A stretch of 35,278 nt of DNA, taken from the IMG/VR virus record IMGVR_UViG_3300027848_000003. The stretch is one strand, 5' to 3'. Both the position numbers and the translations under genes were made by a program. Below the pieces are notes generated by a model. The model did not search any database, was not told the DNA's origin, and was given only the letters and a program-made list of their open reading frames with translations. The DNA comes from a virus. Below, one piece after another: positions 9,611 to 17,971 of the stretch. Position 1 is the first letter of the stretch; every line of letters starts with the position of its first letter.

Positions 9611-9849
9611 GATTTGCAACAGTTGCAACTGTTGCAACCCCCTTAGTTGCATATAGAATATACTATTTATAAGGGTTGACAAAGATTTGCAACCGAGTTG
9701 GTTGCAAGTTGGTTAGTAGTAATTTTTTTTTTAAAATTAAAAAATATTTTTAAAAAACACGATTTGCAACCAACTTAGTTGTAAGTATTGATTTTATAGG
9801 GTTTACGGAGTTTTTAGGGGTTGCAAATGGTTGCAACCGAGTTGCAACT
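9611..9849. repeat. Iteron cluster: 7 exact TTGCAAC, 2 TTGCAA[G/A] and about 3 degenerate copies around a 37-nt A/T-only core (9721..9757); putative origin of replication or centromere-like site
   Basis: Exact copies start at 9614, 9623, 9632, 9687, 9764, 9831 and 9842. The 10-nt palindrome AGTTGCAACT occurs at 9621..9630 and 9840..9849. GATTTGCAAC occurs three times and TTGCAACCGAGTTG twice. The cluster is non-coding and lies immediately upstream of the replication genes. Confidence 0.6.
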
Positions 9850-14419: not shown

Positions 14420-14964
14420 AAAGCAATAAGGTAACGGACTTAACATTTGACGATAAGAATTTCAATAAGGGTACACAATACGGGAAATCCCTTATGGAGA
14501 AATCACTTTCTAAATTTGGAGCAGGGCGTTCAATCCTGATAGATAAAAACAATAAAATAATAGCAGGAAATAAAACCACCGAGAACTTCGCGGAACTAGG
14601 ACTTGAAAAAGTTACTATTGTAGATGTTAGCGGTGATACTCTTGTGGCTGTTCGTAGAAACGATATTGACTTAGATACTCCCGAAGGCAGAGAGTTTGCC
14701 CTTGCAGATAATCAAACAGCAAAGGTTAACATTGAATTTGACTTTGGAACGTTGGAAAGTGAAATTGATGAAGGTATATTGGAAGAATGGGGAATAAATA
14801 CGGACGAAGAGGATGTGAAATTAACACCAGAAGATAAAGACCTTTCAGATACATTAAAGGAAACTTTTGAGGTGATCGTTCAATGTGGCAATGAAGATGA
14901 GCAAGAAGCAGTATTTAATAAATTAACAAATGATGGTTTAGTATGCCGAGTTTTAACATTGTAA
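14416..14964 (+). CDS. ParB N-terminal (ParB/Srx-like nuclease) domain protein
   Basis: GRSILIDKNNKIIAGNKTTENFAELGLEKVTIVDV resembles the ParB-like box (I-x-V-D-x-x-x-x-I-I-x-G-[NH]-x-R-x-x-A-x-x-x-L-G). Acidic C-terminal half. TTG start overlaps the upstream stop. Confidence 0.55.
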   Translation: MKSNKVTDLTFDDKNFNKGTQYGKSLMEKSLSKFGAGRSILIDKNNKIIAGNKTTENFAELGLEKVTIVDVSGDTLVAVRRNDIDLDTPEGREFALADNQTAKVNIEFDFGTLESEIDEGILEEWGINTDEEDVKLTPEDKDLSDTLKETFEVIVQCGNEDEQEAVFNKLTNDGLVCRVLTL

Positions 14965-15641
14965 GAGAAATTGAAGCTAAAGACACCTTCAGGGTTAAAA
15001 GCGTTGTAGGCGCATTTGATTTACAAACACAACATATAAAAGAGCACTTCAAAGGCAATATAGATATTGATGGCAAGGATTGGAATGTAGGTTTAATTGT
15101 CGGTAGTTCAGGAAGTGGAAAATCCACAATAGCAAATGAAGTTTTTGGAGATTGTTTTTGTAATTTCGAATACCAAGAAAGTTCTGTGATAGATGATATG
15201 CCGAAAGGGAAAGGAGTTAAAGATATAACGAAAGTATTTACAAGTGTGGGTTTCGCAAGCCCACCGAGTTGGTTAAAGCCTTATGGGGTATTATCTAATG
15301 GTGAACGAATGAGATGTGATTTAGCAAATGCGATATTGCAGGAAAAAGAGATTATAGCTTTTGATGAATTTACTTCAGTAGTAAATAGGGAGGTTGCAAA
15401 AACAGGAAGTTACGCAATAAGTAAAGCGGTTAGAAAATTAGACAAAAAATTTATAGCTGTAAGTTGTCATTATGATATAAAAGAATGGTTGGAGCCTGAT
15501 TGGATATATGATACAGATAAACAAGAGTTTTTTTTTGTGCTGGCGAAATCAAGCGACCGGAAATTAAACTCGAAATCTATCAAGCAAACAAAGCAGATAA
15601 AGAAAGAAATTGGAAGCCATTTAAAAAGTATCATTATTTAG
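14943..15641 (+). CDS. ABC-type ATPase (zero-frame product); likely continues by a -1 shift at 15528..15536 into the GNAT frame
   Basis: Walker A GSSGSGKST, ABC signature LSNGERMR, Walker B EIIAFDEF and H-loop VSCHYD. The zero-frame tail after the T9 run (VLAKSSDRKLNSKSIKQTKQIKKEIGSHLKSIII) is low-complexity and Lys/Ser-rich. Confidence 0.7.
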   Translation: MPSFNIVREIEAKDTFRVKSVVGAFDLQTQHIKEHFKGNIDIDGKDWNVGLIVGSSGSGKSTIANEVFGDCFCNFEYQESSVIDDMPKGKGVKDITKVFTSVGFASPPSWLKPYGVLSNGERMRCDLANAILQEKEIIAFDEFTSVVNREVAKTGSYAISKAVRKLDKKFIAVSCHYDIKEWLEPDWIYDTDKQEFFFVLAKSSDRKLNSKSIKQTKQIKKEIGSHLKSIII

Positions 15642-16057
15642 ATGAGAAATTACTCAAATCAAGTAGGCAGTTTTTAGGGGTAGTTAACGGTGAGGTTGTG
15701 GCTCATACAGGAGTTATACAATTCCCAATGAGAAAAGGATGGAAAAGAATTCATAGGTTAGTTGTTCTGCCAGATTATCAAGGAATCGGAATAGGAATGA
15801 GATTTATTAATGAGGTTTCAGAGATAGTTAAAAAAGAGGGCTTTAATGTTAATTTAACAACTACAACGCCAAGTTTAATCAATGCAATGTGTAGGGATAA
15901 GAAATGGCTATTAAAAAGAGCGGGTAGGATGGGAAATGAATCTAAAAATTGGGCAAAATACGGAACAGGTGATAAGGTTAAAAATGAAAAAACATCTAAA
16001 AAAATGGGGAAATCAGATAGCTCAAACAGAATAACATACTCTTTTAATTTTAAGTAA
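15521..16057 (+). CDS. GNAT acetyltransferase domain encoded in the -1 frame; no start codon before 15698
   Basis: The frame is open from 15521. WKPFKKYHYLDEKLLKSSRQFLGVVNGEVVAHTGVIQ...RLVVLPDYQGIGIGMRFINEV carries GNAT strands and motif A (Q-x-x-G-x-G). The track ORF 15698..16057 (GTG) would lack the N-terminal strands. Confidence 0.65.
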   Translation, partial: TRVFFCAGEIKRPEIKLEIYQANKADKERNWKPFKKYHYLDEKLLKSSRQFLGVVNGEVVAHTGVIQFPMRKGWKRIHRLVVLPDYQGIGIGMRFINEVSEIVKKEGFNVNLTTTTPSLINAMCRDKKWLLKRAGRMGNESKNWAKYGTGDKVKNEKTSKKMGKSDSSNRITYSFNFK

Positions 16058-16074: not shown

Positions 16075-16431
16075 ATGAGCAAGAAATTAGACAATCTTAA
16101 GAAAGGGGTTAAGTTCCCAATACAAGATCCCACAAAGGGAGGGCGTCCTGTATCTATACGTAACCAATTAAAAGACCTACTAGAAGCGGAAGGAAACGTA
16201 ACCATGCCAGCGAATCAAGTTGTAAAGGTTAATGAAGATGGGAGCGTAGTTTTAAAACTACCTACTCAAATGCAGCTTGCAATGAAGCTATCCAGTTGGG
16301 CAATGAGCAAGAAGGGCAATGATAGCCTGAAAGCTATTCAGATGATAATGGAGCAGATAGATGGTAAGCCGAAACAAGACGTAGAGGTGACTACCAATAA
16401 AAAGAAACCCCCGAAAAAACACTTTGAGTAA
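16075..16431 (+). CDS. Terminase small subunit candidate
   Basis: Its position is immediately upstream of TerL and overlapping it. It has an N-terminal F-x-x-x-x-x-x-G-G-R-P motif (KFPIQDPTKGGRPVS) and a basic C-terminus. Confidence 0.5.
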   Translation: MSKKLDNLKKGVKFPIQDPTKGGRPVSIRNQLKDLLEAEGNVTMPANQVVKVNEDGSVVLKLPTQMQLAMKLSSWAMSKKGNDSLKAIQMIMEQIDGKPKQDVEVTTNKKKPPKKHFE

Positions 16432-17758
16432 ACCAATAGTAACATCAAAGAAATACAAGCCCCTTTGGGATTGGTCACTAGTTGAAGAAAAGCTGGAGAA
16501 AGACACAACTAAAGAAGAACAAGACTACTATACTAAACTCTCTAAGGTTGATAAAGTGATAATGACAGGCGGGAGGTATTCAGCAAAATCCTTCGAGGTT
16601 GCAGATTGGGCAGTCGATGGAACTATACACTACGATTATAGAATACTATACACGAGATTCACCAACGTTTCAATGAGCGATAGCGTTATTCCAGAGATTC
16701 AAGAAAAGATAGCGATTAACCACTACGAGGATTATTTGACATTCGCAAATAATAAATACAAATCACAATGCGGCGGCGGACTAATATCGTTTAAAGGAAT
16801 TAAGGCGGGATCTGGCGGACAGACGGCAAACCTAAAATCATTAAAAGATTTTAATGTACAAGTAACAGACGAAGCAGAAGAAATCCCAGACTATAAAACG
16901 TTTGAAAAGGTGTACTTCTCTATACGCTCAAATGACCGAAGAAACTTATCTATTTTAATCCTAAACCCAACCACTACAGATCATTGGATATTTGAGGAGT
17001 TCTTTAGAAAGCGAGAAGTACCAGAGGGATTCAACGGCATTAAAGATGAAATCTTATACATTCACACAAGCTATTTAGACGTTGATAGTAGGGTAAATCC
17101 GCCTAATATAATAGCAGCATTTGAGAAGATGCGGGACAACCGCCCAAAGGATTATAACGAGATTGTCCTCGGAGGTTGGATTAGCGACCTGCAAGGGCAA
17201 CTGTACAAGCGCGAGGATGTACAAACATTCAGTATAAAGGATTTTAACCTAGAAAATGTTGAAGCTGTTGTTTGCTTCATAGATGTAGCTGATCGAGGTA
17301 CAGATTCCTTGAGTATGCCAATTGGCTTTTTAGTTGGGGATTTAGTTTACATTTACGATTGGTATTTTAGCCAAGATAATCAAGACATAACCATCCCAGA
17401 GATAGCATTTAAGTCTATTGAGAATAAGATAGAACACATGGCGGTAGAGGTGAACGGTGTAGGATTGGGCTATCTTGAAGAACTACAAAAGAATGTCGGA
17501 TGTATAACATATCCCTTTAGTCAGCAGACTAATAAGCACAGCCGTATGATTCAGAATAGCGGATTTGTACGTAATTATATGGTATTCCGAGATGACTATG
17601 AGGCTGGTTCTATGTACGACAAAGCTATGCGTGAGATGTTTGCGTATATGAAAGACGATAAATTAAACAGGAAAGGCTCTTACAATGACGATGCACCAGA
17701 TAGCGCAACTGGTCTTTGGATAACGTGCAAGGATTTGTTTCCAGATAAATGGATGTAA
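16424..17758 (+). CDS. terL: Terminase large subunit (PBSX/terminase_6-like)
   Basis: Walker A-like VIMTGGRYSAKSFEV and Walker B VQVTDEAEEI, followed by C-terminal nuclease-like FIDVADRGTDS and YNDDAPDS. It has a TTG start 5 nt before the TerS stop, and the first in-frame ATG lies after the conserved KYKPLW region. Confidence 0.9.
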   Translation: MSKPIVTSKKYKPLWDWSLVEEKLEKDTTKEEQDYYTKLSKVDKVIMTGGRYSAKSFEVADWAVDGTIHYDYRILYTRFTNVSMSDSVIPEIQEKIAINHYEDYLTFANNKYKSQCGGGLISFKGIKAGSGGQTANLKSLKDFNVQVTDEAEEIPDYKTFEKVYFSIRSNDRRNLSILILNPTTTDHWIFEEFFRKREVPEGFNGIKDEILYIHTSYLDVDSRVNPPNIIAAFEKMRDNRPKDYNEIVLGGWISDLQGQLYKREDVQTFSIKDFNLENVEAVVCFIDVADRGTDSLSMPIGFLVGDLVYIYDWYFSQDNQDITIPEIAFKSIENKIEHMAVEVNGVGLGYLEELQKNVGCITYPFSQQTNKHSRMIQNSGFVRNYMVFRDDYEAGSMYDKAMREMFAYMKDDKLNRKGSYNDDAPDSATGLWITCKDLFPDKWM

Positions 17759-17770
17759 TTAATAAATAAT

Positions 17771-17971
17771 TTGTATAACTCAAAAAAAAATTGTAGTATT
17801 GCAAACAGGGTGTTGTGTCTTTGTCCGAAGAAAAAGTTTCTAGGAGAAGATTTAGTTGATGGTAAAGTACTTTGTTCTTGTGGAAATATGAATGATTTGA
17901 GCAATGGAAAGTACTATCCAAACAAACTATCACCATCCTATCAAAGCACTCTAAATAAGAAAGGTACATAA
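17771..17971 (+). CDS. Cys-rich small ORF (CLCP...CSCG), in the same frame as the portal and separated from it only by a TAA
   Basis: Open frame with possible TTG (17771), GTG (17810) or ATG (17888) starts. It has a C-x-C...C-x-C pattern. Whether it is an independent gene or a detached portal N-terminus is unclear. Confidence 0.3.
   Translation: MYNSKKNCSIANRVLCLCPKKKFLGEDLVDGKVLCSCGNMNDLSNGKYYPNKLSPSYQSTLNKKGT

Follow-up and report, generated by a model that had tools for sequence, protein, structure and literature searches.

We propose that one gene of this phage directs the synthesis of two proteins. Standard decoding of positions 14943-15641 would give a 232-aa stand-alone ABC-type ATPase, and a fraction of expression events would switch to the -1 frame on reaching nine consecutive T's (15528-15536), giving a 371-aa protein in which the ATPase is followed by a GNAT domain. 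We hold this reading to be about 85% probable. A preliminary description, made from the window sequence by itself, had suggested the same two products, and the comparison with relatives strongly supports the suggestion. That slippage occurs, how efficient it may be, what share each slipping mechanism may have in it and what purpose it may serve are inferred.

Gene layout and the putative slip site

The window, by which we mean the whole stretch of 35,278 nucleotides that was analysed, is a metagenome-assembled viral genome from IMG/VR, complete at 35,163 bp and carrying direct terminal repeats. Its ATPase-GNAT gene lies between a ParB-like gene and the terminase genes (Table 1). The ParB/Srx-like gene overlaps the ATPase start by 22 nt, and a ParB-like gene is a conserved partner of the ATPase-GNAT gene, appearing as its annotated neighbour in P335, phiNIH1.1, the Oenococcus phage and MismyG. 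The small ORF that accompanies the large terminase gene has no family match and is probably the small terminase subunit.

Table 1. Features of the ATPase-GNAT locus, in window coordinates.
Feature	Position	Strand	Evidence or remark
ParB/Srx-like gene, 182 aa	14416..14964	+	PHROG 620 (ParB-like), E 5.6e-13
Frame-0 ORF, predicted short product, ABC-type ATPase, 232 aa	14943..15641	+	Pfam ABC_tran, 4e-8; PHROG 11143 positions 3-193
Putative slip site, T9	15528..15536	+	Equivalent of the last ATPase-domain beta-strand, before the inter-domain linker
-1-frame part of the predicted long product, linker and complete GNAT, 173 aa plus stop	15536..16057	+	PHROG 11143 positions 197-348
Frame-0 stop, TAG	15639..15641	+	Within the conserved YHYL codons of the -1 frame
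Small ORF and large terminase subunit	16075..17758	+	Large subunit: Pfam Terminase_3, 7.4e-19; PHROG 2

Around the run the frame-0 codons are GAG TTT TTT TTT GTG, and frame 0 then continues into a 34-aa Lys/Ser-rich tail. Taken with the upstream frame, positions 15530-15536 form a heptamer T_TTT_TTT in the phase that -1 ribosomal frameshifting uses, and the whole run, which lies inside a coding region, reaches the length of about nine or more A or T at which transcriptional slippage is expected. The -1 frame stays open over 15521-16057, where the earliest ATG, GTG or TTG is the GTG at 15698, none occurring at 15521-15697. The conceptual fusion joins 198 residues to 173 (371 aa), with the junction ...KQEFFF-CAGEIKRPEI.... 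The preliminary description had pointed to the T run with its flanking codons and Lys/Ser tail, to the phased slippery heptamer and to the long startless opening of the -1 frame, and all of these stand in the sequence as it had them. It had also stated that runs of nine or more T or A cause transcriptional slippage, and slippage of bacterial RNA polymerase at runs of nine A or T is indeed established (PMC5009743).

A T9 run is not rare at this base composition, so that its significance rests on the relatives and not on the run itself, and we dropped composition statistics as an argument for it. T/A runs of at least nine are depleted in the window (4 pattern matches, 11.4 expected from shuffles). 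The only two others are a T10 on the + strand (9723-9732) and a T9 on the - strand (17782-17790); both lie between long + strand ORFs, the second just past the large terminase gene. The T run at 15528-15536 was also considered as a piece of an intrinsic terminator or of a promoter, and rejected as such: it is preceded by no hairpin, and no site is called there.

The two domains and their boundary

The short product carries the motifs of an ABC-type ATPase, with Walker A GSSGSGKST, signature LSNGE, Walker B IIAFDE and an H-loop CH, and the family alignment has G..GSGKS, LS.G, DE..S and CH as invariant columns. The -1 frame had been described as encoding GNAT strands. Its match to Pfam Acetyltransf_1 (E 4.8e-9) begins at residue 18 of the open frame, and the frame carries, in alignment with the in-frame relatives, the GNAT motifs RPEI...W..F.KYHYL...LPDYQGIGIG. 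A GNAT domain with its acyl-CoA-binding motif QGIGIG is present, and in the window only a -1 shift would join it to the ATPase. A single family, PHROG 11143 (357 positions, function unknown), matches both halves, its positions 3-193 in frame 0 at 1.4e-58 and its positions 197-348 in the -1 frame at 4.7e-32.

The conceptual fusion aligns unbroken with relatives whose gene is uninterrupted, and these in-frame relatives read across the junction as ...PDWxYDxxxxxF..RG.LRRPEI....W..F..YHYL.... In an AlphaFold model of the closest in-frame relative, L103 (mean pLDDT 86, pTM 0.78), the equivalents of the window FFF form the last strand of the ATPase domain (residues 195-198), followed by a 12-residue coil (199-210) and then by the first strand and helix of the GNAT domain. 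The slip site thus falls exactly at the domain boundary of this model, and the short product would therefore be a complete ATPase domain. For the N-terminal 200 residues of the in-frame relative, Foldseek finds the ABC nucleotide-binding fold (the HlyB nucleotide-binding domain and similar structures). The PDB sequence search, NCBIfam, PADLOC and Foldseek return generic ABC nucleotide-binding domains and GNATs only, and nothing more specific.

A compact ABC ATPase with a C-terminal GNAT, in a phage setting, has been described in a passage of PMC7824862, with acyl modification of DNA bases as the predicted activity. By sequence, the window gene is a member of this ABC-ATPase-coupled GNAT family, which it resembles in architecture and in phage setting as the passage gives them; the acylation of DNA is a prediction. 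That passage, which goes back to a 2013 paper by Iyer and co-workers, mentions no frameshift in the family.

Split and in-frame relatives

A blastn search found no close phage DNA match to the window, the best identity being about 66%, and relatives were therefore sought at the protein level. The set comprises 182 related loci, drawn from GenBank phages, IMG/VR and GTDB genomes and classified by tblastn with the conceptual fusion as the query. The gene is in one frame in 144 of the 182 loci and split in 36, counts that overstate independence since many loci are akin to one another. All 36 splits pass from frame 0 into the -1 frame, never into the +1 frame, and they do so around query residues 196-205, which is the domain boundary.

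The sites at which the gene is split take several forms. T9 is present in the window and in six other loci of the first set (L006-L010 and L016), and in-phase T9 runs also came up in a second search, in a further nine contigs of other metagenomes, which brings the total to 15 contigs besides the window, themselves interrelated. T7, as xxT TTT TTT, is found in 10 loci and T_TTT_TTC (T6) in L089, and the in-phase heptamer is present in 11/11 loci of this class. Nine loci are split at an A9 or A10; in five of the nine a TAA of the -1 frame abuts the A run, so that the shift must fall within the run. The Spirosoma and Nibrella prophages (L072, L073) have G_GGA_AAG. L021 has C_CCA_AAG, with a hairpin GGAGCC-AAC-GGCTCC 6 nt later, and an Oenococcus phage (unk162) has A_AAG_GGC. 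In Lactococcus P335, Streptococcus phiNIH1.1, MismyG and L081 the site is GTT TTT C, with only T5. One locus of the T7 group, L198 (1441-1590), has T6 instead and falls into the third frame, which stops after 16 codons; it is the only exception among 46 split loci, and is either a one-base run-length error or a mutation giving a defective allele.

In the split relatives the stop of frame 0 always lies inside the YHYL codons (ATT ATT TAG/TGA/TAA), and its formation inside these conserved codons explains the common end point of the short ORF. Roughly one split locus in two lacks any ATG, GTG or TTG in the -1 frame of the overlap, and the window is one of these. The preliminary description had proposed comparing orthologues, and the relatives turn out to have either one fused ORF or a slip site at the same place with the same 0 to -1 arrangement. 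Separate GNAT genes with starts of their own, which would count against this reading, were sought among the relatives as well, and none has a credible start upstream of the conserved N-terminal strands. The arrangement is still seen in relatives with about 45% protein identity. Some 59 members of the family, the close relative L103 among them, lack a slip site and encode the fusion only, so that two products are not required by the enzyme as such.

The published records of phages and prophages are also split (P335, phiNIH1.1, Oenococcus unk162 and MismyG), and give the gene as two CDSs or as a CDS and a gap. As an example, in phiNIH1.1 (L002, NC_003157.5 15992-16445) the approximately 450 nt past the "ABC transporter ATP-binding protein" are unannotated in RefSeq, and they are the -1-frame GNAT. 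Some copies come from MAGs with archaeal labels: three in-frame copies (L024, L026, L027) are in one chromosome-level MAG labelled Methanoregulaceae archaeon (OY969564.1), and two A9 split copies (L084, L091) are in MAGs labelled Bathyarchaeota. Either the copies belong to archaeal proviruses or they are artefacts of binning or contamination.

A mirror-image layout appears among the relatives in one frame. Eighty-two in-frame loci (L023, L025, L028, L104-L182 and others, e.g. L104:1201-2268) have an A10 at the ATPase/GNAT junction within an invariant ...GGG CAA AAA AAA AAT AGA CCA..., and L030 has an A9 there. The run is immediately followed by a TAG or TAA of the -1 frame in 82 of these 83 loci. 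Slipping by -1, or the addition of one A, would end the protein just past the ATPase domain, and by analogy the A10 loci may be dnaX-like, producing the fusion by default and the truncation by slip. AAA makes up 86% of the Lys codons, so the invariance of the A10 is only moderately informative, and the loci that carry it are akin.

Constraint on the overlap and age of the arrangement

The overlap of the two frames was analysed in 11 loci of the T-run group, over a 90-nt stretch ending at YHYL. Summed over columns, the entropy at the three codon positions of the -1 frame is 27.7 / 17.9 / 31.4, lowest at the second position and highest at the third, and the mean amino-acid identity is 0.50 in the -1 frame versus 0.37 in frame 0. 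The 34-aa frame-0 tail is poorly conserved. As judged from these alignments, the protein-constrained frame in the overlap is the -1 frame.

In a quick FastTree phylogeny of 178 rows (junction columns excluded; some branches are long), all forms of the slip site fall in one clade of 128 rows with support 95, and the basal clades, 50 rows in all, are plain in-frame throughout. The window belongs to a 13-row T9/T7 clade (support 97), which also holds the in-frame L103 with no run, and paths of about 0.75 substitutions per site separate the window from the nearest T7 relatives. This distribution on the tree indicates that the arrangement is old, and that the fusion is the functional form.

RNA structure and the possible slipping machine

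The 64-109 nt downstream of the window T9 are no more stably folded than shuffled sequence (z -0.2 and +0.7), and there is no clear Shine-Dalgarno-like element upstream of it. The other T9 loci and the A9/A10 loci likewise have no downstream structure. Ribosomal slippage at the window T9 would therefore be unstimulated, and possibly inefficient. A strong stem does occur in the Lactobacillales-type clade with T5 or T7, where it begins 6-7 nt past the run, has the form xCCCAC...GUGGGx, and gives z between -2.2 and -5.1. The stem-bearing loci are from Bacillota phages (Lactococcus, Streptococcus and related; L001:2092-2160, L002, L004, L059, L081, L085, L094), and their arms vary by locus, as in CCCCCAC...GTGGGGG, GCCCAC...GTGGGC and GCCACGC...GTGTGGC. 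Which codons hold the 3' arm varies from locus to locus, suggesting selection for the structure.

A short run with structure fits ribosomal frameshifting, and a long run without structure fits a large contribution from RNA-polymerase slippage. Structure on the short runs only is what two mechanisms serving one outcome would predict. The in-phase heptamer in all T7 loci points to a ribosomal component there too. At the window T9 either RNA-polymerase slippage, unstimulated ribosomal slippage or both are possible. On the ribosome, the tRNA-Phe pairs would slip back one base on U_UUU_UUU; during transcription, RNA polymerase would add one U while transcribing T9; and both routes would lead to the same 371-aa protein.

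Alternative explanations

The preliminary description had itself allowed for a homopolymer sequencing error or a recent inactivating indel, and both suggestions are contradicted by the G_GGA_AAG and C_CCA_AAG sites, by the splits in isolate phages and prophages, and by the persistence of the arrangement to about 45% identity. In the case of an assembly or sequencing error, the real genome would have T10 (or T7) and a single uninterrupted 371-aa ORF. The window is indeed a metagenome-assembled viral genome, homopolymers are error-prone, and L198 does resemble a one-base error in run length, or a mutation. Set against this, the same T9 with the same frames is present in 15 other contigs from different samples, the same split recurs at T5 and at heptamers that are not homopolymers, all 36 splits of the first set go in one direction, and the assemblies resolve the A10 in frame in 82 loci. 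We consider an error extremely improbable, and the least probable of the three alternatives. A real frameshift in the DNA without recoding would mean a decaying pseudogene, or else phase variation by replication slippage, T9 giving the ATPase only and T10 the fusion; homopolymer tracts are well known as contingency loci, and run-length variants do exist, as in L198. Against decay, the GNAT frame is intact and its motifs are kept in all split loci, down to about 45% identity, and the variability by codon position reflects protein constraint on the -1 frame of the overlap. Against phase variation, the 16 T9 contigs include no T10 or T8 allele, and the non-repetitive heptamers that occupy the same site cannot phase-vary. 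An explanation of this kind is highly improbable as well. Random errors or decay would give splits in both directions, at scattered positions and with broken GNAT frames; nothing of this sort is seen.

The remaining alternative dispenses with the frameshift and makes two genes of the locus, with the GNAT started independently, either by re-initiation past the frame-0 stop, at the GTG at 15698, or at a non-canonical start. GenBank records of relatives do annotate two CDSs, of which the second begins from a TTG inside YHYL or from further downstream, and GeneTack-type analyses often assign overlapping pairs of ABC ORFs to translational coupling (PMC3711429). What weighs against two genes is the lack of a start at 15521-15697 in the -1 frame of the window, a lack that about half of the split relatives share in their overlap. 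A GAGG stands only 2 nt upstream of the GTG at 15698, and a start at this GTG would lose about 54 residues, which in the model of the in-frame relative are strand 1, helix 1 and strand 2 of the GNAT. The lost residues, RPEI...W..F.KYHYL, are conserved with the in-frame relatives. Two independently started genes are the least improbable of the alternatives, and still very unlikely, and we prefer the reading of one gene whose two products would arise by a -1 slip at T9.

Proposed role

For a gene that makes two products by slippage, the likely purpose is to set, within an ABC-type dimer, the ratio of the free ATPase to the ATPase-GNAT form. The dimer probably acts on DNA together with its ParB-like neighbour, in line with predictions by others for the family. 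A broader proposal, which we make tentatively and place a little short of even odds, is that a slip device maintained for a long time across the family sets this ratio, with repeated switching of both layout and machine. One large clade would have switched between a fusion-default layout (A10 then TAG) and truncation-default layouts (T9, T7, A9, G_GGA_AAG and others), and within the same clade the slipping machine would also have switched between polymerase and ribosome. If this is true, the active enzyme would be an asymmetric ABC dimer with fewer than two GNAT heads, acting with its ParB-like partner on phage DNA.

Gene callers split the gene, naming the first half "ABC transporter" or "iron siderophore transporter" and leaving the second half hypothetical or unannotated, and a widespread phage enzyme is thus mis-annotated in many records. 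Once the recoding site is recognised, the true product would be an ATPase-GNAT fusion beside a ParB-like partner and the terminase genes, and tests of the predicted DNA acylation must express both products, in their ratio. The family would add a variant-rich member to the small set of conserved frameshifts of tailed phages, and the slip sites, as a natural series, could serve to compare ribosomal with transcriptional slippage.

Comparison with known recoding systems

We found no paper that describes a frameshift in the ATPase-GNAT family. The gene is mentioned neither in the recoding review by Atkins and co-workers (PMC5009743) nor in the PRFect paper; no acetyltransferase or GNAT is entered in the GeneTack paper (PMC3711429), whose ABC-transporter clusters could not be matched to the window family. 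Among the GenBank records of relatives that we examined, none has a joined CDS at the ATPase/GNAT junction.

The E. coli dnaX gene produces tau and gamma by -1 ribosomal frameshifting at A_AAA_AAG. In Thermus thermophilus, dnaX uses transcriptional slippage at a 9-base run (PMC5009743). As proposed for the window family, recoding at an ATPase domain boundary lets the single dnaX gene yield a long form and a short one, and the machine that slips to this effect, ribosome or polymerase, differs between lineages. The layout of E. coli dnaX recurs in the in-frame relatives with A10 and TAG, in which a slip would lead to an immediate stop. The protein is unrelated, however, and in the window the default would be the short form and the slip would give the long one.

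The lambda tail assembly chaperone G/GT frameshift takes place at G_GGA_AAG, the heptamer also found in L072 and L073. In the tail chaperones, as in the window family, the position of the -1 frameshift is conserved across very diverse phages and the slippery sequence varies. G/GT is a different gene with a different place in the genome and a different function, and its frameshift is proven and routinely annotated. In Shigella flexneri mxiE, a T9 joins two overlapping frames, and one added U gives the full-length protein. The likeness to the window lies in the nine-T run at which two overlapping frames would be joined, but mxiE is a bacterial transcription activator and not a phage enzyme, and the window family also uses heptamers that are not homopolymers. 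Shigella is named as a slippage case in the recoding review (PMC5009743). The OrfA-OrfB pairs of IS3 and IS1 resemble what is proposed for the window in that a -1 slip on A/T-rich heptamers or runs adds a downstream catalytic domain with no start of its own, and they resemble the window family in that some members have downstream stems; they encode transposases of mobile elements, whereas the window gene encodes a phage accessory enzyme beside the terminase genes. The mechanism is of a known kind, and the gene family is a new and unusually varied example of it.
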